DNA of 57,433 bases. It comes from Clostridia bacterium. GTDB lineage: Bacteria > Bacillota > Clostridia > Christensenellales > QALW01. This document shows, piece by piece, positions 2,331-31,125 of this stretch. Where the stretch lies: assembly GCA_045537705.1 (NCBI GenBank), contig JAZSPY010000089.1, positions 1 to 57,433 of the forward strand, written 5' to 3'. A program made the translations under genes and the position numbers. A model generated the notes under the pieces. It had not been told where the DNA came from, did not search any database, and saw only the letters and a program-made list of their open reading frames with translations. How positions within the stretch are numbered: position 1 is the stretch's first letter; each line of letters opens with the position of its first letter.

Positions 2331-3305
2331 TTGAAAAAATTACTTATTACAGTTTTATCCCTTTTGCTTATTTTTTCTTTTGCTACCATAAACGCTGTGC
2401 CAAGCGCACCAAACTATTTATTTGGGCTTGCTTGGAAAAAAGGGCATTCTTCAACTATACAAAAGGTGGACGGTCTTTACGTTGAAGCAACGAATCTAAC
2501 AAAATCTTATTCCACGCCTGCGCTTGATATTGCCCCCGCTTTAAAACAGGCTTTTTATGACCACGCCATGAGCAAGTATATTTCCGTAAGAATACAAGGC
2601 AAAATAAAGCTTGATTTTGAAGAGAATAAAAAAGAATCTGACTCTTTAAGGATAATTATTCGCGCCAAAACAAATCTGGCAAACTCTGATGCTTGGAAGG
2701 CAGATTACCTTGAATCTCTTAATAATGACGATCCGTTTTTTATGGTTTTGGACACTAATGTGTATGCCATTGTTTTAAAGGATTTTAGCGTTTCAACCAA
2801 TTGGGGTTCCTTTACGTGCACTGTTCCGTTAACGAAAAATAACGTTTTTTGTGAAATGACACCTACCTGGGACTTGTGTGTTGATGGGCTTGATATTAGC
2901 AAAAAGCCTAAAACCTTATACTTAAAAGATTTATCCTTGGACGTTGTTTCCGTTAGTAACAATACGCCCGGTATAACACCAACGGCAACACCAGCAGTAA
3001 CGCCAACGGCAACACCAACCCCGAACATTCCCCCGAGGCGCACCCCTGACGCACCCATAACGCAAACGCTTATTCCTTTTAGAACCCCTGTTAGCGATCT
3101 TATAATAACGCAGCCAACAGCAACGTTAAAACCTACCTTGGAACCTGAAAAAGATGAAGAAATTCGCGAAGAATTTATAAATCAGCCTGCATTTAAGGAT
3201 GCAAAAAATATATTTTCGTTAAGCATTAAAGGTGCTATAGTCATCATTATCTTTGCAGGATTTTTTGCAATTATCCTTAACCTTTTCAGGCGAAAAAAAG
3301 AATAA
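2331..3305 (+). CDS. Hypothetical secreted, C-terminally membrane-anchored protein with a Pro/Thr linker
   Basis: Signal peptide MKKLLITVLSLLLIFSFA (TTG at 2331 after AAGGGGG), TPTATPAVTPTATPTP linker, C-terminal TM helix and RRKKE. Confidence 0.8.
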   Translation: MKKLLITVLSLLLIFSFATINAVPSAPNYLFGLAWKKGHSSTIQKVDGLYVEATNLTKSYSTPALDIAPALKQAFYDHAMSKYISVRIQGKIKLDFEENKKESDSLRIIIRAKTNLANSDAWKADYLESLNNDDPFFMVLDTNVYAIVLKDFSVSTNWGSFTCTVPLTKNNVFCEMTPTWDLCVDGLDISKKPKTLYLKDLSLDVVSVSNNTPGITPTATPAVTPTATPTPNIPPRRTPDAPITQTLIPFRTPVSDLIITQPTATLKPTLEPEKDEEIREEFINQPAFKDAKNIFSLSIKGAIVIIIFAGFFAIILNLFRRKKE

Positions 3306-3349
3306 ATAAAAATGCCCCTTATTAATGAATGAGATTACTAAGGACAATA

Positions 3350-3387
3350 AAAAACTGTGCAGAAATAATCTGCACAGTTTTTCTTTT
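3350..3387 (+). terminator. Intrinsic terminator
   Basis: AAAAACTGTGCAGA / TCTGCACAGTTTTT stem followed by a T-rich tail. Confidence 0.75.
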
Positions 3388-3471
3388 GTCTTATTTCGCA
3401 ACAAGCAGGGAACCTGCACGGCAACTTCCACTTATTAGGACAACCTAAGACCCTTTAGCCACCTCAAAAAA

Positions 3472-3674
3472 AGTGATATTGTGAGACAAGTCTCACAGTG
3501 ATATTTGACCTTTCGGTCAAGTGATATTAAAACCTTTCGGTTTTAGTGATATTTTTTTCGCCCCTAAACAGCCAAAGGCAATACCACTTGTCGCAAGACA
3601 AATATAACTGCGAAGCAATATAACTCGCCGTATGGCGAATAAAACTAGCCAAGTGTCTTTAAGAACACTTGGCT
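3472..3674. repeat. Strand-symmetric 9-mer/hairpin ladder (REP/BIME-like element)
   Basis: AGTGATATT at 3472, 3497, 3520 and 3545, separated by hairpins. Reverse-complement-like AATACCACT/AATATAACT/AATATAACT/AATAAAACT at 3580, 3601, 3617 and 3638, separated by hairpins. Terminal stem at 3646-3674. Confidence 0.85.
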
Positions 3675-9720: not shown

Positions 9721-11976
9721 TTATTTCTTCTTAGGTTCTCTGATTTTTGAAAGTTTTTTATTAAGGGCTAAAAGTTCTTCCTTAGTAAAATTCATATCCA
9801 TCATTCCGCCCATAAGGGTGAACAATCTTAATACGGTAAAGCCGCCCATCATAGCCATCATTTCAGGTCCAACTTCAAAACCGGCCGCCTTTATTTTTCC
9901 GCCCTTGCCTTTCTTGTTGCCCATAACCTTTTTCATAAGGCCCATAAAGATAAGCTTTCCACGCAAGGTTGAAATAACTGCACTCATTTTTGAATTAAGG
10001 GAAAGGAATCCGGGTTTTTCTTCAATATCAAACCAGTTTAATACTGCGCCCTGTTCCTTTAAGCGATAATCTTCGTTAAAGGTTTCAACCTTTTTGATTA
10101 CGCTCTCATCTTTACATTCACCTGCAACTGCAAGAAGTTTTGTTTCGCCTTTATTTTCAACTTCAAAATAGAAGAAGTGGTCTTCTTTAGTTTTTTTGCC
10201 TAATGACACGCCGTTTGCAAAAAGTTCAACTTCAGGCAAGTTAGAATAAATAGTAACCTTTGTTACTTCTTCTACCCTATCAACATAACGTTTTGAGCAG
10301 ATGTGCACAAAAGGATCATCGGAAAGCCATGCTTTGTAAGCATAGAAAGCATCCTTTTTATATTTGCGATCAATAGTAACAAGGCCTTTATGGTTTTGTC
10401 CGTTTTCACCGCCTTCGCATCTTGCATCAGCGCCAAAATCAAACATGTTCCAAACGTGTGTTGCCCAAAGATATTTACGGGTAAAAAGCTGTTTAATAAG
10501 TTCTTCGTGATAATATGCCTGATATTCTTCAGTATAATCGCCCTGCATTGGTGTTGAAGTATGCCAGTTCAATGCTTCGCAACCATATTCTGAGCAACCG
10601 ATAGGAATGTTTGGATGGGTTTGGTGGAACTTATCAAACCAAGGACCGTTCATACTTGTTTCGCCACCATACCAGCCAAAGTAGTGGTTGTATGAAACAA
10701 CATCGGGAATCTGTAAATACGGATCATCCATTTTGCACATTGAAACTGCTGCAATAGTTGTTAAACGAGTGGGATCCATTTGGTGACACATATCGTTTAA
10801 AATATGATGATTTTCTAATAAATCATTATCGCTTCCGCCAATACCGATTTCATTTGAAAGACCCCAAACAACGATTGATGGATGGTTGTAATTTTGTGTA
10901 ACAAGTTCGGTCATTTGTTGTATGGTGTTTTCTCTACCATCAGGCATATGTTTTGAAATATAGGGGATTTCTGCCCAGATAACAAAACCGTATTCATCGC
11001 AAAGATCATAGAAATACTGATCGTGCTGATAGTGTGCAAGGCGGATAGTTGTTGCGCCTACTTCATAAATAAGTTCAATATCTTCCTTGTGATCTTCTTT
11101 TGAAAGCGCGTTACCCTTTTGCCAGCGATCCTGGTGGCGTGAAACACCCCTTAATGGATATTCTTCGCCGTTTAAGATAAAGCCGTTTTCAGAATCAATC
11201 TTAAAGGTACGGCAACCAAAGCGAGTACAAACGTTATCAATAACGGTTTCGCCTTCCAGCAATTCTGCTTCACAGCAATAAAGATATGGATTTTTTCTGC
11301 CGTGCCAAAGAATAACGTCAGGAATAGTTAATTCTGCTTTTGTTTCTTCTGTTTCAACTGTTGCAATAACCTTTTCTTCTTTATCATAAACAGTGTAACG
11401 GATAATCTGTCCGTCTTTTTTGTTTGTGATAAAGGTTTCAACTTTAATTAAAGCATCTTTATCCTTAATTTCAGGTGTAACCATAATGCCGGGGCCACCA
11501 AAGTAATCAAGATCAAAGTGACTATCGTTTACTGAAATAATATTTACGTCACGATAAAGTCCGCCGTAAAAAGTGAAGTCAGCCATCTGTGGATAAACCC
11601 TGTCGTTTGCTGAGTTATCTACCTTAATAACTAAAAGGTTTTCATCCTTTAAAGCGTCTGTAATATTTACACGCCAGGTAGAATATCCACCATCGTGATG
11701 CTTTAATTCCTGTCCGTTTAAAATAACGTCAGCCGAGGAGTTTGCACCGCGGATTTCAAGATACTGCTGATCAGCCTCAGGCAAATCGCTTTTATTAAAT
11801 TTCTTTACATAATAACAAGTACCGCGATAATAGTCGTTTCCGCCATCCTGACCGTCAATAGCATTCCAGCAATGTGGAAGATCTACTTTTTCGTAGCTAT
11901 CTAAAATTTCATTTGGTACTTCCTGAGCATCCTTTGTAAAAGCCCATTTTTCATTAAAGTTTAAAATATTTCGCAT
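9721..11976 (-). CDS. Glycoside hydrolase family 2 (beta-galactosidase/beta-glucuronidase-like)
   Basis: RGVSRHQD, IRLAHYQ, NHPSIVVWGLSNE (acid/base), SEYG (nucleophile), WNMFDF, NHKGLVT. Confidence 0.92.
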   Translation of the reverse strand: MRNILNFNEKWAFTKDAQEVPNEILDSYEKVDLPHCWNAIDGQDGGNDYYRGTCYYVKKFNKSDLPEADQQYLEIRGANSSADVILNGQELKHHDGGYSTWRVNITDALKDENLLVIKVDNSANDRVYPQMADFTFYGGLYRDVNIISVNDSHFDLDYFGGPGIMVTPEIKDKDALIKVETFITNKKDGQIIRYTVYDKEEKVIATVETEETKAELTIPDVILWHGRKNPYLYCCEAELLEGETVIDNVCTRFGCRTFKIDSENGFILNGEEYPLRGVSRHQDRWQKGNALSKEDHKEDIELIYEVGATTIRLAHYQHDQYFYDLCDEYGFVIWAEIPYISKHMPDGRENTIQQMTELVTQNYNHPSIVVWGLSNEIGIGGSDNDLLENHHILNDMCHQMDPTRLTTIAAVSMCKMDDPYLQIPDVVSYNHYFGWYGGETSMNGPWFDKFHQTHPNIPIGCSEYGCEALNWHTSTPMQGDYTEEYQAYYHEELIKQLFTRKYLWATHVWNMFDFGADARCEGGENGQNHKGLVTIDRKYKKDAFYAYKAWLSDDPFVHICSKRYVDRVEEVTKVTIYSNLPEVELFANGVSLGKKTKEDHFFYFEVENKGETKLLAVAGECKDESVIKKVETFNEDYRLKEQGAVLNWFDIEEKPGFLSLNSKMSAVISTLRGKLIFMGLMKKVMGNKKGKGGKIKAAGFEVGPEMMAMMGGFTVLRLFTLMGGMMDMNFTKEELLALNKKLSKIREPKKK

Positions 11977-19005: not shown

Positions 19006-20028
19006 ATGGCAAAAGTTGTTACATTTGGCGAGGTTATGTTGCGCCTTGCCCCTAACGGTTACTACAGATTTTTTCAAAACGATCAGATGCAGGCTACCTT
19101 TGGTGGCGGCGAAGCAAACGTTGCAGTAAGCCTTGCAAACTTTGGTTTGGATAGTGCTTACGTTACAAAATTGCCTGAACACGCTATCGGTCAGGCTGCA
19201 GTAGATTCATTAAGATACTTTGGGGTTGATACTTCAAAAATCGTTCGCGGCGGCGAAAGAGTTGGCATTTACTTCCTTGAAAAAGGCGCTTCACAAAGAG
19301 GTTCCGTTTGTATTTACGACCGTAAATATTCTGCTATTCAGCAGGCTAAAAAAGAAGATTTTGATTGGGCAAGCATTTTTGAAGGTGCCGATTGGTTCCA
19401 TTTTACAGGCATTACCCCTGCTTTAGGCGAAAACGTTGTTGAAATTTGCTTAATGGCTTGCAAAAAAGCAAAAGAGATGGGCGTTAAAATTTCTTGCGAT
19501 CTTAACTACCGTGGAAAACTTTGGACAAGGCAGGAAGCCAACAAGGCTATGACTGAACTTTGCAAGTATGTTGACGTTTGCATTTCTAACGAAGAAGATG
19601 CAAAAGACGTATTTGGTATTGAAGCAGAAGGCACCGATATTTACGGTGGCAAATTAAACCATGAAGGCTACAAGAGTGTTGCCAAGCAGTTAATGGATAA
19701 GTTTAACTTTGAAAAGGTTGCAATTACTTTAAGAACATCTATTTCAGCCAACGACAATGATTGGGCTGCTATGCTTTATGATGGAAGCGATTACCACTTC
19801 TCAAAGAGTTATCACCTTCATATCGTTGACCGTGTAGGCGGCGGCGATTCATTTGGCGCAGGGCTTATTTACGCTATCTTAAGCGGTAAAAGCAGTAAGG
19901 AAGCAATTGAGTTTGCAGTTGCCGCTTCAGCCCTTAAACACACCATTGAAGGCGATTACAACAGGGTTAGCGTTAAGGAAGTTGAAAAACTTGCAGGTGG
20001 CGATGGCTCCGGCAGAGTTCAAAGATAA
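19006..20028 (+). CDS. kdgK: 2-dehydro-3-deoxygluconokinase (PfkB family)
   Basis: FGEVMLRL, GGGEANVA, DLNYRGKLW, DRVGGGDSF. Confidence 0.92.
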   Translation: MAKVVTFGEVMLRLAPNGYYRFFQNDQMQATFGGGEANVAVSLANFGLDSAYVTKLPEHAIGQAAVDSLRYFGVDTSKIVRGGERVGIYFLEKGASQRGSVCIYDRKYSAIQQAKKEDFDWASIFEGADWFHFTGITPALGENVVEICLMACKKAKEMGVKISCDLNYRGKLWTRQEANKAMTELCKYVDVCISNEEDAKDVFGIEAEGTDIYGGKLNHEGYKSVAKQLMDKFNFEKVAITLRTSISANDNDWAAMLYDGSDYHFSKSYHLHIVDRVGGGDSFGAGLIYAILSGKSSKEAIEFAVAASALKHTIEGDYNRVSVKEVEKLAGGDGSGRVQR

Positions 20029-25604: not shown

Positions 25605-26291
25605 ATGGGCATTCACGATGGACACAGGGAAAAATTAAGAAGAAATTTTATTGCTGTTGGCCTTGAAGGTAAATCAGACCATCAGATTCTTGAACTTTTA
25701 TTAACTTATGCTCTGCCTCGCATTGATGTTAACCCCCTTGCCCACGAACTTATAGATAAATTCGGTTCCCTTTCAGGTGTTCTTGATGCAGATATTTCCC
25801 AGCTTACTAAAATTAAATACGTTTCTGAAAACGTTGCGGTTTTAATTAAACTGATTCCGCAAATTTCTATGAAATATTATCAAAGCAAGCACGGTGAACG
25901 CATTCGCCTTAACACAGTTGATGCAATTAAAGATTATATGATACCTCAACTTGTTAGCGAAAAATCAGAAGTGTTTTTCGTTTTATGCTTAGATACCCAT
26001 CTTAACCTTATCCGCGCTATAAAGCATTCAGAAGGCTCACCATCAAAAACTGCTATTGATATCCGATCGCTTGCAAACCAGGTGCTTAATACCGGCACTG
26101 ACAGAATTATTCTTGTGCACAACCATTTATCCAATTCTGTTACGCCATCTGCACATGATATTCAAGCAACTAAAAGGATTGCTACAGCTTTTGAACTTAT
26201 TAACGTTACCGTTCTTGATCATATTATAATTTCAGGCGATAAATATTTTAGCTTTTTTGCAAATAAAGATATCCTTGAAAGCGCAAAATAG
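25605..26291 (+). CDS. radC: RadC-like JAB/MPN protein
   Basis: HDGHREKLR, ELLLTYALPR, HNHLS...PSAHD, LDHIII. Confidence 0.9.
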   Translation: MGIHDGHREKLRRNFIAVGLEGKSDHQILELLLTYALPRIDVNPLAHELIDKFGSLSGVLDADISQLTKIKYVSENVAVLIKLIPQISMKYYQSKHGERIRLNTVDAIKDYMIPQLVSEKSEVFFVLCLDTHLNLIRAIKHSEGSPSKTAIDIRSLANQVLNTGTDRIILVHNHLSNSVTPSAHDIQATKRIATAFELINVTVLDHIIISGDKYFSFFANKDILESAK

Positions 26292-26340
26292 CAAACGTTT
26301 TTATATATTTAAAAAATTCTTTTGTTTTTTTAAAAAACGC

Positions 26341-26369
26341 TTGACAGAATGTTTTTTATAAAATATAAT
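26341..26369 (+). promoter_or_regulatory. Consensus sigma-A promoter of the tRNA
   Basis: TTGACA (26341-26346), 17 bp, TATAAT (26364-26369). Confidence 0.9.
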
Positions 26370-26386
26370 TAGCCTTGTTAATAGAT

Positions 26387-26471
26387 GCGAGTGTGCTGGA
26401 ATTGGCAGACAGGCATGACTAAGGATCATGTGTCAACAGACGTAAGGGTTCAAGTCCCTTCATTCGCACCA
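26387..26471 (+). tRNA. tRNA-Leu(AAG)
   Basis: Acceptor GCGAGTG/CATTCGC + ACCA, D-loop TTGGCAGAC, anticodon arm CATGA-CT[AAG]GA-TCATG, long variable arm, T-arm AAGGG-TTCAAGT-CCCTT. Confidence 0.93.
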
Positions 26472-27114
26472 TGCTTTAAAGCCTTGTGATTACTGCTAGT
26501 CGGTGGTTGCAGGGCTTTTCTGTTTTTAAAAATGAAGGGACTTGAAGCCAAAGTGGGCGCGTAGGCGTAAAAAAACAGTTTAGTAAACTGTTTTTAGCCA
26601 AGCGTTGCGAGACGGGTACTGTTGCAAAGCAACGGTCGGCGAGCAAGTAAGGCGCGTAGCGACTGTGTCCCTTCATTCGCACCAGTGCTATATGCCCCTT
26701 GATTGCTGCTTTTCACAGTGGTTGAGGGGCATAACTGTTTTTGGAAAACCTCTTGGGACAAGTCCCTTCATTCGCACCGCGTCAGCAAAAAGTCCGTTCG
26801 CGGTGTTTCCCTTTAACAAGGAAAACTTTTGCTTACTCCCTTTTGCTTCCTTTCTCCCACAAAGGCACGCCTTTGCGGGAACCCTGTTTAATAAGCCTTG
26901 TGATTACTGCTAGTGAAGTGGTTGCAGGGCTTTTCTGTTTTTAAAAATGAAGGGGCTTGAAGCCAAAGTGGGCGCACAGGCGTTAAGAAAACAGTTTAGT
27001 AAACTGTTTTTAGCCAAGCGTTGCGAGACGGGTACTGTTGCAAGGCAACGGTCGGCGAGCAAGTAAGGCGCGTAAGCGACTGTGTCCCTTCATTCGCACC
27101 GCGTCAGCAAAAAG
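26454..27114 (+). repeat. tRNA-linked repeat array (four copies of the tRNA 3' end; about 205 bp direct repeat)
   Basis: GTCCCTTCATTCGCACC at 26454, 26667, 26762 and 27084; 26479-26683 is near-identical to 26893-27100. Confidence 0.9.
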
Positions 27115-27125
27115 ATGAGCATAAA

Positions 27126-27167
27126 AAAGGCAGATAGCTTGACACTATCTGCCTTTCTTGTTTTTTT
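27126..27167. terminator. Bidirectional intrinsic terminator closing the tRNA array
   Basis: AAAGGCAGATAG-CTTGACA-CTATCTGCCTTT followed by a T-rich tail. Confidence 0.75.
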
Positions 27168-27169
27168 AA

Positions 27170-27661
27170 TTATCTTAAGAAGTTAAGCTTCTTGATGATA
27201 GCGGGTTCCTTTGCCTGTCCGTTGCAGATCTGGAAGAAACAAATGATCTTTACAACAAAGAGTGTGATATAAAGAACCGTTGCCACAATAAGAGCAAGCC
27301 CATAAATAATTGTTCCAAGGATAGGAATGATATTTATAACCATACCAACGGCAAGAACAATAGGAACAAGTGTTTCAACAACAACAAACTTCAGCGCCTG
27401 ACGAACATGGAAGGCAGCATACTTTGAGGTGTTGCTACCTAAAAGCGCAAGCAAGATGCCGATCCAGCCCATAAGATAAACAAGCATTGAAATTACTTTG
27501 TTTTCAGAAATGTCTTTTGCATCAAATTCTGCAGTATGATCATAAGGATCAGGCTGGGGTGCATATTGCGTCTGCTGGGCCTGTGCGAACTGTACGCCAC
27601 AATTTGTGCAAAAAGCAGCATCATCATTAAGTTGAGTGTTACAATTAGGACAATATTTCAT
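27170..27661 (-). CDS. Zinc-ribbon + DUF4870-like membrane protein
   Basis: MKYCPNC...FCTNCG zinc ribbon, ENKVISMLVYL, FHVRQAL and three TMs. Confidence 0.8.
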   Translation of the reverse strand: MKYCPNCNTQLNDDAAFCTNCGVQFAQAQQTQYAPQPDPYDHTAEFDAKDISENKVISMLVYLMGWIGILLALLGSNTSKYAAFHVRQALKFVVVETLVPIVLAVGMVINIIPILGTIIYGLALIVATVLYITLFVVKIICFFQICNGQAKEPAIIKKLNFLR

Positions 27662-27761: not shown

Positions 27762-29441
27762 TTATTCGTTTAACTTATCAAAGATCATTTGATTTATTTT
27801 ACGGCGGATTTTAAGCATCGTTTGGGCATCACAAACGCATTTATTAAACTTAATTTCACCTGTAATTTCTTCTATTGCCTTAACTGTTTCTTCAAATGAA
27901 TACAGTTTTGCGCAATATTTCATAGCACGAACGTCTTCAAAGGCTTCGTAAAGGGCGCGGAATCGGTTGGATTCATAGGCTGTTCCATCAGGGGCAGGAT
28001 ATACCATACAGTTATCGCCGCCGGGCACAAAGCCTTCCGAATCCGTTGCAAGATACGGATTTATTCTATCATAACACCACTGGTTATTATAGAAGTTATA
28101 ACCCCAATGTAAAAATCCCTTTATATCGTATTTAAAAAGCTGAACGCCTAAATACCTTGTACGTGCCAAAGCCATTGAAAAATAACAGTTGCTTATGCCT
28201 TTAGCGTGCATACCACAATAATAGGCAAAAAGATTTTTTACGTTGTTTTTAATAAAAGGTTCTATGCTTAACGTTGCAGGCACGGGATTTGAAATTATAC
28301 CCTGTTCATAGAATTCATAATCTGAAATGGCATCCATTATAGGATAACCCTTTAAAATATCTTTTAACTTGCTATAGATTTCCTTATATCTTTCAAAATG
28401 CTCCTTTTCAGGCTCATCTGAAATATGGAAATAGCACTTTTTATCTTCGTTTCGTTCCAACATATACTTGATAAAGTTCTTTAAAAGCGCCCGAACAAAA
28501 GTGATGTATTCTTCACTTAACGAATCGGTGTTCCAATCAAAAATAACTTGTTCCTTGTTATCCACAATAGCCACAACCTTAGGTGCATGCATTGCGCCCC
28601 ATTGTGTGAACAGGTGGGAAATTTCGTAATACTTAACACCGCATCTGTTTGCCATATCAAGCCAAGTGCCAAGTTTATCAAAATTGAACTTATAATCGTT
28701 GCCTATTTTATAGATATCAACAAGCTGAGTGGTTGTTCTTTCACCATAGTGGTGTGTATCAAGGGGATAAGTTAAAAGCGGTGTTAAAAGCATATTTCTT
28801 CCGCCTTCAACAGCCTTTTTAATAAAGTTTTCGCAGATTTCAAAATGTTCCTTTGAAAAAACGGGAACGTTATAGTAATCAGCAAGGCAATCAGCATAAA
28901 ACCACTGTGTAATTTTTAAATCGTTTTCGGGCAAACTTGCGTTTTTAATGGTTAATTTTAAGGTTTGTTCCCCTAAAACTTCATCAGTTGCTTTTAAGCC
29001 TTCTTCGTAAGTTACCCGATAAATTTTAACTTTTATCTGGAATTCACCTGTAATTTCGCCTTTGGGATCAACGGTAATATAAATACCCCTTGCTTGATTG
29101 GGAACAATATTCATATTGCCATCATACTTCATTGGGCGTAAAAGTTCGGGAAACAGCCCCGGCTCAGTTCTTTCAAGCTGATCATCGTGATTGTGGGGCG
29201 CAGGCATTTCACACGGAAGCGGAACAACTTCCCTTATCGTTATATAATCATTGATTTCGCTTTCAATTTTAGGTGTAAAGCGGTACATTCTGTACATGCC
29301 CTTTAAATCTTCCGCTTCAACCAGCATCTGAAAGGAATAAATCTGATTTTTAAATATGGTTTCTTCTTTAAGTTCAGTAAAATTTTCAATTTTACTATCT
29401 AAAAAGCAACGTTCAAGAGATGAAACTATTCTTGTGTTCAT
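27762..29441 (-). CDS. DUF4091-domain protein (GH123-related putative glycosidase)
   Basis: QWFYADCLADYY, HLFTQWGA, HISDEP, GFLHWGYNFY, GDNCMVYP. Confidence 0.8.
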   Translation of the reverse strand: MNTRIVSSLERCFLDSKIENFTELKEETIFKNQIYSFQMLVEAEDLKGMYRMYRFTPKIESEINDYITIREVVPLPCEMPAPHNHDDQLERTEPGLFPELLRPMKYDGNMNIVPNQARGIYITVDPKGEITGEFQIKVKIYRVTYEEGLKATDEVLGEQTLKLTIKNASLPENDLKITQWFYADCLADYYNVPVFSKEHFEICENFIKKAVEGGRNMLLTPLLTYPLDTHHYGERTTTQLVDIYKIGNDYKFNFDKLGTWLDMANRCGVKYYEISHLFTQWGAMHAPKVVAIVDNKEQVIFDWNTDSLSEEYITFVRALLKNFIKYMLERNEDKKCYFHISDEPEKEHFERYKEIYSKLKDILKGYPIMDAISDYEFYEQGIISNPVPATLSIEPFIKNNVKNLFAYYCGMHAKGISNCYFSMALARTRYLGVQLFKYDIKGFLHWGYNFYNNQWCYDRINPYLATDSEGFVPGGDNCMVYPAPDGTAYESNRFRALYEAFEDVRAMKYCAKLYSFEETVKAIEEITGEIKFNKCVCDAQTMLKIRRKINQMIFDKLNE

Positions 29442-29454
29442 TTTTATTCCCTCC

Positions 29455-31125
29455 TTAATTTAATTTATCAAAAATCATTTTATTGATGGTTTTGCGAATC
29501 TTTAACATTGTTTCGGAATCGCAAATGCATTTATCAAAAAGAATCTCGCCTGTAATTTCTTCAATAGCTTTTATTGTTTCTTCAAAAGAATAAAGGCTTG
29601 CGCATAACTTCATTGCCCTTAAATCTTCAAAGGCTTCGTAAAGTGCAAAGAAGCGGGTGGATTCATAAGCCGTTCCATCAGGGGCAGGATAAACCATATA
29701 AGTATCGCCGCTGGCTGAGAAAAGTTCACCTGTTGAAGAAAGGTACGGATCAACGTGATCATAGGACCAACGGTTATTATAGAAGTTATATCCCCAGTTC
29801 ATAAAGCCTTTTATATTGTACTTAAAAAGTTGAACGCCTAAATACCTTGTGCGTGATAACGACATTGAAAAATGGCAGTTTGAAATGTTGATACAATGTC
29901 CGCCACAATAATAGCACAATAAATCCGGCACGTTATTTTCTAAAAACGGTTTAATCTCCATTATTGATGGAATCGGCCTTGTAACGATGCCCTGCTCATA
30001 AAAATCGTAAGTTGAAAGGGCATCAACCTGCTCATAGCCTTCAATAATATCGGCGATCATTTCTTTTAATGCTTTATACTGTTCAAGATGTTCCTTTTCA
30101 GGCTCGTCTGAAATATGGAAGAAGCACTTTTTATCTTCACCACGCTGTTTCATATGTTCAATAAACGCCTTTAAGAACTGCCTTAAAAAGTTCTTGTAAT
30201 CAGGGCTTAATGCAGGGGTATCCCAACCGAAAATGCGCTTATATTCGCCGTTTTCATAAGCCATTACCTTTGCAGTTGCTGTTGCGCCCCACTGTGAAAA
30301 AAGCGGGCAAACCTCATAATATTTAAAGCCGATTTCTTGGCACATATCAAGCCAACGATCTAAATTATCATATTTAAAGGTGTAGTTATCCCCTGTTTTA
30401 TAAACGTCAATTAACTGAACTGTTGTGCGGTAATGATGATGCCTTATATCAAGGGGAAGCGTTAAAAGTGGCAAAATTATCATATTTCTTCCGCCATCAT
30501 ATGCAGTTTGTAAAAAGTTTTTACAGATTTCAAAATGCTTATCGGAAAAAACGGGAACATTATAATAATCCGCAAGGCAATCAGCGTGGAACCACTGTGA
30601 AACCATAATATCGCTTTCAGGTAAAGAAACGTCTTTAATATCAATCTCTATTTCTTCGCTGGCTAAAATTTCGCCACTGCCCTTTAAGCCTTTTTCGTAA
30701 ACTACCTTTTCAAGCAAAAGGGTGATTTTATGTTTGCCTGTAATTTCGCCATTTGGCTCTAAAGAAATCCAGAACGCTTTTAAGCAACCGTGTGGGCAAC
30801 GTGCACTACCAACATATTTAAGGGGCCTGATTAAATCGGGATAAAGCCCCGGCTCCCTTCTTAAAAGGTTTTCATCAGAATGTGAATAAACAGCCATATC
30901 TGATGGAATATTTACAACTTCCCTGATTGTGATATATTCGTTAATATCGCTTTCTACCCTTGGTTTAACAAATAGGTTTGCGTTTTTTGGTGCTTCATAG
31001 ATAAACTGAAAATAATACTTCTGGTTTTTAAAGATTTGTTCGCTTGTTAAGGCGTTGAAATCTTCAACAGAATTATCTAAAAAGCACTTTTCAAGGGATG
31101 AAACGATTTTTGCTTTGATACTCAT
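29455..31125 (-). CDS. DUF4091-domain protein (GH123-related putative glycosidase), paralog
   Basis: QWFHADCLADYY, PLFSQWGA, HISDEP, GFMNWGYNFY, GDTYMVYP. Confidence 0.8.
   Translation of the reverse strand: MSIKAKIVSSLEKCFLDNSVEDFNALTSEQIFKNQKYYFQFIYEAPKNANLFVKPRVESDINEYITIREVVNIPSDMAVYSHSDENLLRREPGLYPDLIRPLKYVGSARCPHGCLKAFWISLEPNGEITGKHKITLLLEKVVYEKGLKGSGEILASEEIEIDIKDVSLPESDIMVSQWFHADCLADYYNVPVFSDKHFEICKNFLQTAYDGGRNMIILPLLTLPLDIRHHHYRTTVQLIDVYKTGDNYTFKYDNLDRWLDMCQEIGFKYYEVCPLFSQWGATATAKVMAYENGEYKRIFGWDTPALSPDYKNFLRQFLKAFIEHMKQRGEDKKCFFHISDEPEKEHLEQYKALKEMIADIIEGYEQVDALSTYDFYEQGIVTRPIPSIMEIKPFLENNVPDLLCYYCGGHCINISNCHFSMSLSRTRYLGVQLFKYNIKGFMNWGYNFYNNRWSYDHVDPYLSSTGELFSASGDTYMVYPAPDGTAYESTRFFALYEAFEDLRAMKLCASLYSFEETIKAIEEITGEILFDKCICDSETMLKIRKTINKMIFDKLN

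Follow-up and report, generated by a model that had tools for sequence, protein, structure and literature searches.

The tRNA-Leu(AAG) gene of this Clostridia bacterium is followed, on its own strand, by a stacked array of non-coding modules comprising two copies of a ~155-nt element that we call X, one Y module and three internal terminator-like hairpins. X belongs to a family found behind many tRNA and tmRNA genes, each copy of which is matched at both ends to its own host tRNA and folds around a covarying core, and the arrangement of the modules varies between related species at this same tRNA gene. We give an even chance to the reading that this array corresponds, in Clostridia, to the tRNA-linked repeats (TLRs) of E. 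coli, that is, a trailer RNA module amplified by homologous recombination between copies of a tRNA 3'-end 17-mer and its terminator. On this reading X would be transcribed and processed as an RNA, and the recombination steps by which we would derive the stack are reconstructed from comparison with relatives.

Anatomy of the tRNA-Leu array

Within the window (the whole 57,433-nt stretch of DNA analysed), the array has housekeeping genes for neighbours (dnaX, ybaB, recR, SDR, radC, a zinc-ribbon protein and GH123). Its features are as follows.

26341..26369, plus strand: sigma-70-type promoter-like site 5' of tRNA-Leu, TTGACA-17 nt-TATAAT, 12/12 consensus positions
26387..26471, plus strand: tRNA-Leu(AAG) gene with encoded CCA (ARAGORN; Rfam tRNA, 49.2 bits; 19 related loci with the same tRNA)
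26454-26470, plus strand: 17-mer copy 1, within the last 18 nt (positions 59-76) of tRNA-Leu(AAG)
26478..26518, plus strand: terminator-like hairpin B1, the native tRNA trailer, 18 pairs, T-rich tail TCTGTTTTTA
26531..26683, plus strand: X copy 1 (covariance model R1, 175.6 bits; consensus fold and covariation)
26531-26549: anti-T-arm segment of X copy 1, complementary to tRNA 26446-26464 (inverted repeat, 19 nt, 95%)
26667-26683, plus strand: 3' end of X copy 1, a copy of tRNA nt 59-75 and thus 17-mer copy 2
26691..26733, plus strand: terminator-like hairpin B2, the tRNA trailer in a second version
26753-26761, plus strand: short anti-T segment y, TTGGGACAA, read from the sequence
26762-26778, plus strand: 17-mer copy 3, directly after y
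26779..26892, plus strand: Y body, beginning GCGTCAGCAAAAAG, with two conserved hairpins and a pyrimidine-rich stretch
26893..26932, plus strand: terminator-like hairpin B1', a copy of B1 with altered loop (direct repeat, alignment)
26946..27100, plus strand: X copy 2 (R1, 173.3 bits; aligned with copy 1 and the single copy of relative G010)
27084-27100, plus strand: tRNA-end copy at the 3' end of X copy 2, 17-mer copy 4
27101..27114, plus strand: Y remnant, the first 14 nt of Y (GCGTCAGCAAAAAG), identical to 26779-26792
27126..27156, plus strand: final terminator-like hairpin, 12 pairs, tail CTTGTTTTTT, kept in G010

What the first-pass annotation had observed in this region is borne out. The 17-mer GTCCCTTCATTCGCACC occurs four times on the plus strand, starting at 26454, 26667, 26762 and 27084 (0 expected; 0 in 100 shuffles), the tRNA-Leu(AAG) gene at 26387-26471 has the first copy as its 3' end, and the spacing gives units of 213, 95 and 322. 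Over its 3' ~208 bp, unit 3 repeats unit 1 in diverged form, visible as direct repeats of 91 nt at 98% and 73 nt at 93%, with about ten differences in the alignment, two of them indels. GCGTCAGCAAAAAG follows 17-mer copies 3 and 4 as part of a 31-nt stretch that is identical at 26762-26792 and 27084-27114. The promoter-like consensus site before the tRNA (12/12 match, 26341-26369) and the terminator-like hairpin at 27126-27156 are both present. The units are structured and contain no credible ORF: the three mechanically listed ORFs that overlap it (102, 68 and 67 aa) have no Pfam match at E ≤ 0.1. Of the Rfam 15 families run over 25800-27600, only tRNA passes, all others falling far below the gathering score.

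The proposal of an array of small cassettes at the tRNA 3' end stands as far as the stacking goes and gives way on the point of three unrelated cassettes. Units 1 and 3 both hold X, so the count of at least three distinct elements fails, and unit 2 consists of a terminator copy plus a short 5' part of Y, the remainder of which opens unit 3. The hairpins at 26478-26518, 26691-26733 and 26893-26932 inside the array had been overlooked, as had the match of both ends of every X copy to its own tRNA. Because three terminator-like hairpins lie inside the array, the suggested co-transcription with the tRNA needs read-through.

Each module has relatives behind the same tRNA. The B1 hairpin is kept there in G010, G016, G006, G011 and other genomes, while B2 matches the hairpin after Y in G016 at 56/62 positions and resembles the native tRNA trailer of G018 over its first 15 nt. 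In X copy 1 a three-hairpin core is enclosed between the anti-T-arm segment and the 3' tRNA-end copy. The Y module as a whole (y, 17-mer and body; 26753-26892) is accessory to X. Judged from its sequence, its opening part (y plus 17-mer copy 3, 26753..26778) looks like a T-arm-like mini-hairpin followed by an acceptor 3' strand; the same junction is found in G016, G005 and G018 and folds as a hairpin in the four-sequence alignment, where the Y hairpins also carry compensatory changes. The Y body is 83% identical in G016, 81% in G005 and 69% in G018, all behind this tRNA, and the 14-nt Y remnant recurs 3' of the single X of G010. Y-like modules also lie 3' of X at other tRNAs.

The X family, its placement and its fold

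Homologs do sit behind other tRNAs, the main unit being a dispersed family at many tRNA and tmRNA genes. In this genome the 7 strong R1 matches are all behind such genes, namely tRNA-Leu(aag) twice, Ser(cga), Glu(ctc), Pro(cgg) twice and tmRNA, and a downstream copy of a tRNA 3' 17-mer is found in this genome only at the five X loci. X is present in 12/21 genomes of the genus and in 22/151 sampled genomes of the order, with at most 9 copies per genome. Loci mostly carry a single X; tandem X occurs at C115 of this genome, which has two copies plus one partial, and in G006, G068 and G094. Other small repeat families occupy the same tRNA flanks.

Beyond these genomes, a GTDB-wide pattern scan listed at least 120 loci, many being chance matches in high-GC genomes, of which 44, chosen by Clostridia-like or unclear titles, were given to the model. 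L104 and L066, which duplicate L033 and L047, were excluded from the tree and counts; L129 (masked N) was excluded, and L091 and L065 (register problems) were excluded from some counts. For placement 44 copies were examined and L066 skipped, leaving 43 with a gene called within 200 nt upstream. X lies just 3' of the terminator of its host tRNA, on the tRNA strand, and starts 15-60 nt after the tRNA or tmRNA gene in the 43 copies (36-60 nt in 42/43), whose hosts comprise 17 tRNA anticodon species plus tmRNA. A terminator-like hairpin follows within 75 nt of X in 51/70 copies, compared with 37/500 control windows.

The ends of X are specific to the host. In every copy the 5' start is antisense to the T arm of its own tRNA and the 3' end copies tRNA nt 59-76. 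Over the 43 copies, the 3' copy agrees exactly with its cognate tRNA over a median of 18 nt and with non-cognate tRNAs over 5, while the 5' antisense matches over 14 nt versus 6. In the sequences read, the 3' copy has a sharp left boundary, at tRNA position 59. The antisense reaches further, following tRNA positions 51-58, which lie outside the 3' copy; position 57 is matched in 45/45 informative copies. Where the 3' copy has decayed (11/44), the antisense is nearer the tRNA in 10 and nearer its own partner in 0. This tracking of the tRNA over the partner is unexpected from a simple 'closing helix' role.

The X core has a four-way junction fold with strong covariation. In a set drawn from other species-level genomes (39 matches in 38 of the 44 loci that the model received), pairing holds in 95.9% of cells versus 80.3% in shuffles, 29/41 pairs show double-sided changes, and the covariation score is 0.436 versus ~0.05 for slid controls, in alignments fitted to the covariance model itself. 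The signal persists behind one kind of tRNA: among 8 copies ending in the tRNA-Arg(acg) 3' end, from 8 different records (7 with that tRNA called adjacent and L132 with none called), 16/41 pairs are double-changed, and 0/500 shuffles score as high. Paired cells include 165 G-U and 12 A-C, an excess from which the folded strand is therefore the tRNA's strand. A crude all-vs-all pair scan of X gave mostly noise, with one local covarying pair within the antisense/GAGAGGG stretch.

Trailer RNA, mobile element and the origin of the stack

X, as we read it, is a non-coding module of ~155 nt that follows a tRNA or tmRNA gene on the tRNA strand and has a terminator on either side. Its 5' anti-T-arm segment pairs with the 3' copy of tRNA nt 59-76 in a closing helix, leaving an unpaired ...NCCA tail. 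Because such a helix leaves a single-stranded ...NCCA, the ends of X imitate the acceptor/T-arm end of a tRNA. Most probably, polymerase reading through the first terminator would produce the X RNA, which tRNA end-maturation enzymes would then free and trim, a route shown or proposed for E. coli TLR RNAs. No internal promoter in the array was convincing by eye, and the first hairpins after the tRNA look like good terminators. Two contigs from the RNA libraries of two studies include the tRNA and stop at its 3' end (26469-26471), which hints weakly that read-through is not abundant; RNA runs X18 and X19 have no contig over X or Y, and as these are assembled contigs only, this does not show that such RNA is absent.

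A live rival, possible if rather unlikely, is that X is instead a non-autonomous mobile element that targets the 3' ends of tRNA and tmRNA genes, with crossover at T-loop 58/59. Its own folded strand, RNA or ssDNA, would then be the specificity determinant, the antisense reading the target T arm and the 3' copy restoring or duplicating the tRNA end, and the mobiliser would be a host enzyme or an enzyme encoded outside the assembly. That one conserved core sits behind tmRNA and at least 17 tRNA species, and that its ends fit each host, would suit such an element, as would the sharp edge of the 3' copy at position 59 and an antisense that follows the tRNA rather than its own partner. The target (17-mer plus terminator) is duplicated, the two versions being at least 85% identical in 11/45 copies, 60-85% in 20 and below 60% in 14, and the presence or absence of X varies among species at the same tRNA. 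In L173, a large-serine-recombinase island ends at the same tRNA 3' site.

The tree of X cores, built without the tRNA-matched ends, bears on this reading in both directions. The Leu(aag) and Leu(caa) copies of G007 are sisters and the Ser(cga) copy of G010 groups with tmRNA copies: the conserved core has shifted, or been duplicated, from one tRNA locus to another in the same genome. In G139, an X-related repeat lies away from tRNAs in 8/9 copies, and such dispersal, like the movement of the core between tRNA loci, suits a mobile element. Against this, host type changes only 40 times on the tree, compared with 53.1 in shuffles (0/200 as low), and this clustering of copies mostly by tRNA type suggests that descent has been mainly vertical. 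Also telling against mobility are the compensatory changes between copies behind one tRNA and a ceiling of nine copies per genome, and we know of no transposon that alters its own ends to suit each target.

The searches for enzymes, over six chosen protein families, yielded no candidate. As the first-pass annotation had stated, no integrase accompanies the array: recombinase and reverse transcriptase genes are absent nearby and almost wholly absent genome-wide. This genome has no reverse transcriptase (RVT_1), serine recombinase/resolvase, IS110 transposase (PF01548) or Y1 transposase, and a single tyrosine recombinase match (PF00589), on another contig. Of the five genomes tested for Y1_Tnp, only G081 has it; G000, G010, G016 and G139 lack it. 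As a dedicated mobiliser, then, neither a tyrosine integrase nor a serine recombinase, IS110 or Y1 transposase fits. The stretch of 18 nt (59-76) is also the piece that reverse transcriptase copies from a tRNA primer. An origin by reverse transcription was nonetheless rejected as the lead idea, there being no reverse transcriptase here and no tracking of X within the genus, where 5/21 genomes encode one (3 with X, 2 without); it is further disfavoured by the E. coli TLRs behind 5S rRNA, which, according to PMC8144298, obey the same 18-nt rule. Compared with the criteria for a retroelement, an IS110-bridge RNA, a MITE/REPIN and an integrase-borne element, X could be assigned to none of them.

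A wider proposition, which we regard as doubtful, would make X, and with it the TLRs as a class, a self-copying element that can be retargeted and encodes no protein of its own. The folded strand would carry an antisense that reads the T arm and a copy of the tRNA end, and by means of these, host recombination or repair enzymes would paste the conserved core behind a new tRNA or tmRNA gene, both ends being re-templated at each target. If true, this would be a nucleic-acid-guided insertion system directed at tRNA 3' ends.

As for the stack itself, unit number and order differ among related species at this tRNA-Leu gene, as the first-pass annotation had thought they might, and comparison with these relatives suggests that it arose by homologous recombination rather than by serial integration. 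One allelic form would be tRNA-B1-X-17mer-Y14-terminator, as in G010, which has a single X at this tRNA-Leu site and the same downstream gene as here. The other, 17mer-B2-y-17mer-Y-B1, is one we deduce from the window; in the versions of it seen in G016 (B1-y-17mer-Y-B2), G005 and G018, the two hairpins occupy other places. Two exchanges, at the common 17-mer and the common B1 hairpin, would join the two forms. Repeated targeting of the tRNA, as formerly proposed, is thus not called for, since two homologous exchanges account for the layout and serial site-specific integration is unnecessary.

The same joins could have been made by an assembler, and we consider it unlikely that the multiplicity of the array (the X family aside) is a chimera of two co-existing strain variants fused through their shared repeats. 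The assembly that contains the window is in 145 contigs, form alpha followed by form beta and again by form alpha can spell out the array, and a beta-like form exists as its own contig in a public run, the G016-type arrangement B1-y-17mer-Y-B2 being found in one public DNA run. The window-specific junctions X-17mer-B2 and Y-B1' are spanned by none of the listed public DNA contigs (runs X1/X4), an absence without evidential weight in assembled contigs, and two exact junction strings have no match among JGI metagenome contigs. Against a chimera, the public runs may not be the source sample. A chimera would also leave unexplained why the two X copies differ at about ten positions, why B1 and B1' differ in the loop, and why the 17mer-B2 junction has a trailer-like start of its own that is missing from the G016 form. 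Tandem X also occurs elsewhere (C115 here, G006, G068, G094).

We think it very unlikely that X acts at the DNA level only, as a signal for recombination or replication in the shape of a long palindrome or cruciform made up of the tRNA 3' end, terminator and inverted copy of the T arm, in which palindrome-templated correction would keep the antisense complementary and no RNA product would be of consequence. A 19-nt inverted repeat of 95% does flank the terminator, 'empty' tRNA-Leu sites in G011-like genomes keep an inverted tRNA 3' end after it, the antisense stays close to the tRNA also where decay has altered the direct copy, and G-T pairs are tolerated in folded ssDNA. The three core hairpins, however, lie outside the palindrome and yet covary strongly, X is followed by dedicated terminators, and the E. 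coli analogues are RNAs.

Least probable, and close to dismissible, is that the repeats are scars (att sites, arm remnants) of integrase-borne islands repeatedly entering and leaving this tRNA: such islands are usually marked by direct repeats identical to a tRNA 3' end, tmRNA is a classic target, and relative L173 has a serine-recombinase island abutting the same site, but the same core lies at many tRNAs with different repeats, which is not expected of the att remnants of one integrase, its strand-specific covariation indicates a folded single strand rather than protein-binding arms, and the genome has one tyrosine recombinase match, on another contig, and no serine recombinase.

Relation to known systems and significance

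The trailer RNA reading draws on a design known from E. coli. According to PMC8144298, TLRs, known since 1978, still lack an agreed function or origin; they directly follow a stable-RNA gene in the same orientation, number 1-5 per locus and end in 18-19 nt equal to the 3' end of the upstream stable RNA, and some are situated between two terminators and made by read-through. Those compared here are the tyrT 178-bp repeats/rtT RNA and RrA/RrB/RrF behind 5S rRNA. X likewise sits just 3' of a tRNA or tmRNA gene in the same orientation and ends in a median of 18 nt of its cognate tRNA, the two X of the window ending in the 17-mer; the window's two X plus one y/Y unit fall within the number seen at TLR loci. 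The E. coli tyrT unit, too, pairs an upstream antisense with its 3' copy, and in both it and X the left edge of that copy is at T-loop 58/59.

At the level of sequence or covariance model no homology is demonstrable. Rfam rtT has no match at E ≤ 10, R1 run on three E. coli tyrT units places its best three local matches exactly there with only 8 bits, R1 gives no match on the whole E. coli K-12 chromosome, and nhmmer gives none; the E. coli rrnB trailer and X have only a 15-nt hairpin in common. X and the E. coli TLRs thus show likeness of design, and homology is unproven. They also differ: the three-hairpin core of X is common to many tRNAs and genera, whereas the tyrT core looks, by its sequence, like a rearrangement of tRNA-Tyr; the X antisense spans the T loop and tracks the tRNA; X occurs at tmRNA; and X is found in Clostridia, TLRs in Enterobacteria.

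Other systems share single features with X. The tRNA-trailer sRNAs of the 3'ETS-leuZ type are, like the proposed X RNA, trailer non-coding RNAs freed by processing (PMC8144298). They lie before the terminator and have no copy of the tRNA end, whereas X lies after the terminator and forms a multi-locus family. MITEs, REPINs and BOX-type mosaic repeats resemble X in being small, structured, modular, non-coding and intergenic near terminators, and the G139 relatives are dispersed as they are, but the ends of X copy the neighbouring tRNA rather than being constant, the duplicated flank runs from 17 to more than 60 nt, and the Y1/RAYT transposase of REPINs is absent from 4/5 genomes tested. Integrative islands and cis-mobilisable elements share tRNA 3'-end direct repeats, use of tmRNA and tandem stacking with X, which differs in having no integrase, a length of 150 nt rather than kilobases, and one core combined with a different 'att' at each tRNA. 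X may also resemble the IS110 bridge RNA, the integron attC and the CTX phage attP, in which a folded strand has segments complementary to both target strands and a fixed crossover; here there is no IS110-type transposase and only one tyrosine recombinase, and guide lengths and layout differ.

The TLR design is now seen in distant gut Clostridia, as a well-conserved folded element. X supplies independent examples by the dozen, behind tmRNA and at least 17 tRNA species, with a depth of covariation absent in E. coli, and the antisense that follows the tRNA T arm beyond the duplicated part is a new fact. With this material it becomes testable whether such elements copy themselves in a guided manner or are RNAs processed by way of borrowed tRNA maturation. 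In metagenome assemblies, X-type arrays account for extra tRNA 3' fragments behind tRNA genes, and such fragments are not to be taken for integrase scars.

Layout of the array behind tRNA-Leu(AAG)

The 17-mer at the tRNA-Leu(AAG) gene's 3' end, GTCCCTTCATTCGCACC, occurs four times on the forward strand of the window, starting at 26454, 26667, 26762 and 27084 (0 in 100 shuffles), and a repeat finder returns the spacings of 213, 95 and 322 nt that the first-pass annotation had given for units 1, 2 and 3. Its reading of the end of unit 3 as a diverged unit 1 also holds (direct repeats, one of 91 nt at 98%, another of 73 nt at 93%; about ten differences when aligned), as does its claim of a common sequence after the third and fourth 17-mers, the 31 nt from copy 3 being identical to the 31 nt from copy 4. 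The promoter and final terminator it proposed were both recovered, the latter by a scan for terminator-like hairpins, but it had overlooked three such hairpins inside the array (B1, B2 and B1').

Features of the tRNA-Leu(AAG) locus (R1, covariance model of the folded element X)
5' of the tRNA: putative promoter, perfect consensus match
26387-26471, forward strand: tRNA-Leu(AAG), its 3' end being 17-mer copy 1
26478-26518: B1, terminator-like hairpin
26531-26683: X, first copy, R1 match
26691-26733: B2, terminator-like hairpin
26893-26932: B1', terminator-like hairpin
26946-27100: X', second copy of X, R1 match
27126-27156: closing terminator-like hairpin

The array reads tRNA, B1-X-17mer, B2-y-17mer, Y-B1'-X'-17mer, then the first 14 nt of Y and the terminator, y denoting a 9-nt antisense stub and Y a module of 114 nt that holds two covarying hairpins. 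Three related species also have Y at the same tRNA-Leu(aag), and Y-like modules lie 3' of X at a few other tRNAs. An Rfam search of the region returned the tRNA and no other family, and the three mechanical ORFs over the array have no Pfam match, in keeping with the earlier view that it holds no credible ORF. Neighbouring genes are ordinary: on the upstream side dnaX, ybaB, recR, a dehydrogenase gene and radC, and on the downstream side a zinc-ribbon protein gene and two GH123 genes. The GH123-family glycoside hydrolase genes are adjoining paralogues on the minus strand (27762-29441 and 29455-31125).

A family of modules matched to their tRNAs

BLAST of the array against its own genome, a check the first-pass annotation had proposed, matched four other contigs, each just 3' of a tRNA or tmRNA gene. 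These loci share one order: tRNA, terminator, a segment antisense to the T arm, a conserved core and a copy of the last 18 nt of the tRNA, often closed by a second terminator copy. We delimited X from the antisense segment through the tRNA-end copy and trained R1 on eight copies; this model, also proposed earlier, finds a family with strong covariation. The window's genome has seven strong copies, at the tRNA-Leu of the window and tRNA-Pro(cgg) (two each) and at tRNA-Ser(cga), tRNA-Glu(ctc) and tmRNA (one each), and nowhere else in the whole genome does a tRNA 3' 17-mer recur downstream than at these five loci. Within the genus, 12 of 21 genomes carry X (this one included); in the family-level group 13 of 30 do, and of 151 sampled evenly across the order, 22 (14 of 95 genera), with at most nine copies per genome; these frequencies are lower bounds, because R1 derives from one genus and some genomes are incomplete. 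A motif scan of species-representative genomes gave at least 120 loci, 44 of which were run against R1, yielding 39 matches in 38 loci from records titled Clostridia, Acutalibacteraceae, Oscillospiraceae, Ruminococcus and similar. The arrangement recurs in four genomes that belong to other families of that order.

Among 43 copies with an adjacent gene, the hosts comprise 17 tRNA anticodon species and tmRNA, and X begins 36-60 nt past the gene end in 42 (15 nt in the other). The median match to the cognate tRNA is 18 nt for the 3' copy (non-cognate, 5) and 14 nt for the 5' antisense (non-cognate, 6). The antisense complements the sense strand of the tRNA without a break from about position 51 to 67-70, a stretch that spans position 59, where the 3' copy has its left edge. 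Opposite position 57, its base fits the cognate tRNA in all 45 informative copies (25 G:C, 20 A:T), and opposite 51-53 all three bases match in 21 of 46 copies and two in 23. In 11 of 44 copies, some interrelated, the 3' copy has diverged from the tRNA; of these 11, ten have an antisense nearer to the tRNA and none has one nearer to its own partner. Because the antisense tracks the tRNA rather than its partner, either it base-pairs with the T arm itself, at the level of a read-through transcript or of DNA, or it is corrected by palindrome templating. Together the tRNA end, terminator and antisense make up a long inverted repeat, which in the window measures 19 nt at 95%. At tRNA-Leu(aag) sites lacking X (L015 of G011, a related genome; similarly L014 and L016-L019), the last 18 nt of the tRNA recur past the terminator in inverted and slightly decayed form, TGGCGAATGGGGGAT.

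The predicted consensus fold is a four-way junction, in which the antisense and the tRNA-end copy form the closing helix around three hairpins. In the 39 matches, from other species-level genomes, 95.9% of cells pair (80.3% when shuffled), both sides change in 29 of 41 pairs, and covariation scores 0.436, versus about 0.05 with partners slid, all in an alignment fitted to R1 and so biased toward the structure. Eight copies from eight records finish with the 3' end of tRNA-Arg(acg) (the tRNA is called adjacent in seven, and none at L132); among these, 16 of 41 pairs carry double changes (0 of 500 shuffles as high), and the fold has therefore been maintained over time at one same site. Paired cells hold 165 G-U against 12 A-C, an excess that assigns folding to the tRNA's strand.

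Other small elements also lie behind tRNA terminators. On contig C135 of the window's genome (about 10130-10457), some ten head-to-tail 20-nt units, each combining a small hairpin with a TATGTAATC-like spacer, directly follow the terminator of tRNA-Ala(cgc) (10458-10533, minus strand). A second type strings short unlike hairpins on a constant 8-10-nt spacer (TATATCATCA, ATGTAATC or GTGATGC types), followed by a mirror-image half to give one large palindrome (contigs C49 about 3150-3504, C78 about 19480-19717 and C96 about 10877-11100; also loci L035, L037, L039 and L051). The third, Z, is a CAACAAAAAGCAGAATTGCTTTTTGTTG hairpin followed by GAGAGGAG (L014 of G006, L016 of G012, two copies in L018 of G013; L024/L036 and L047 of G007); it is inserted behind the tRNA-Leu terminator, whose 3' half is duplicated (46 nt), and in G007 stands immediately 5' of X at two tRNAs.

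History of X and of the stack

On a tree built from core columns only, with the tRNA-matched ends excluded, X copies cluster by tRNA type (40 changes against 53.1 shuffled; 0 of 200 shuffles as low), so most copies kept their tRNA through speciation. The exceptions, sister Leu(aag) and Leu(caa) copies in G007 and a Ser(cga) copy of G010 that clusters with tmRNA copies, indicate that the core was sometimes copied between loci while the ends remained local. The 40 nt after X resemble the tRNA trailer/terminator at 85% or more in 11 of 45 copies, 60-85% in 20 and less in 14, and a terminator-like hairpin follows X in 51 of 70 copies against 37 of 500 control windows.

The make-up of the units varies among 19 related tRNA-Leu(aag) loci, as the first-pass annotation had thought worth checking.

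Contents of related tRNA-Leu(aag) loci
G010, closest relative: one X, decayed right repeat, downstream gene as in the window
G007: a different module, then X
G016, G005, G018: y-17mer-Y flanked by two terminator copies
G006, G012, G013: another small element with 46-nt terminator duplication
Ten loci: none of these modules in the readable part; in G002 and G022 sequence ends just past the tRNA

B2 equals the hairpin after Y in G016 at 56 of 62 positions, and its start is like the native trailer of G018; a contig with the G016-type order occurs in a public DNA run. Homologous exchange at two places, the 17-mer and B1, would have joined a G010-type form to one with B2-y-17mer-Y and then B1; this putative second form we infer from the window, related versions being present in G016, G005 and G018. 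Recombination between repeats of the locus itself best accounts for the stack. The observation of the first-pass annotation is real, and its interpretation, an accumulating cassette array, is half right.

Resemblance to E. coli repeats and the nature of X

PMC8144298 describes 22 tRNA-linked repeats (TLRs) in ten E. coli loci, one to five per locus, whose last 18-19 bp repeat the upstream tRNA's or rRNA's 3' end and to which it gives no known function; three behind 5S rRNA, between two terminators, are read through and then processed, and the repeated end is proposed as a processing signal. At K-12 tyrT, tRNA-Tyr positions 58-76 close each 178-bp unit, and an upstream GGGGAAGGAT pairs with that copy, which is the antisense and 3'-copy layout of X. 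The three best local R1 matches on tyrT fall on the three units, at just 8 bits; genome-wide R1 and profile searches for X-TLR homology gave no match, nor did the Rfam rtT model on X. By sequence layout X appears to be the same kind of element, with kinship unproven. In the E. coli rrnB trailer (L185:365-379, rrB region), the 15-nt hairpin GTTGCGAAGCAACGG of a 5S-linked TLR equals the second-hairpin sequence of some X copies, and is preceded by GCGGATTTGAAC, which resembles a T-arm antisense yet has no tRNA upstream. A preprint (10.1101/2024.07.17.603846) reports raised 'mobilome' coverage of tyrT/rttR after stress, cause unknown.

We put the chances of X being an RNA trailer at about even. 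RNA-library contigs (assembled, two libraries from two studies) contain upstream sequence and the tRNA and end at 26469-26471, a weak hint that most transcripts stop at the tRNA. The same contigs start 5' of the predicted -35 box and reach the tRNA (window 26312-26386), which suggests either that transcription begins further upstream in those relatives or that the libraries contain DNA.

That X is a mobile element guided to tRNA genes, as its matched ends might suggest, we consider rather unlikely. A co-occurring recombinase or reverse transcriptase was looked for, as proposed earlier: the window's genome (92% complete) has no match to RVT_1, resolvase, IS110 or Y1 transposase and a single tyrosine recombinase match, on another contig. 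Across the genus, five of the 21 genomes have a reverse transcriptase, and of these three carry X and two do not. A literature search found no guided tRNA-targeting element. In G139, a one-contig genome, nine near-identical repeats of about 110 nt (L186-L194) carry the first hairpin module of X and a closing helix of their own, and for eight of them the nearest 400 nt or so hold no tRNA; they resemble dispersed relatives of X that were copied recently. At L052 (G015), an insertion of about 250 nt within the terminator hairpin between tRNA-Ser(cga) and X is bounded by a 14-nt duplication, ACCTTTATGGTGTG.

Three further readings carry smaller weight. A role in DNA only would fit the inverted repeat. 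Scars left by islands would fit L173, from one relative, where a large serine recombinase gene (68-1702; 544 aa; Resolvase, Recombinase, Zn_ribbon_recom and DUF4368 domains) stops about 60 nt before a tRNA-Leu(cag) 3'-end copy, followed by terminator, X and a further copy (1766-1985); the same site is therefore also used by ordinary islands. L084 has a similar island edge. An assembly chimera is the third.

Among the papers listed by our literature search, none describes tRNA-linked repeats in a bacterium other than E. coli. X is a TLR-type family of structured, tRNA-matched modules, new for Clostridia.
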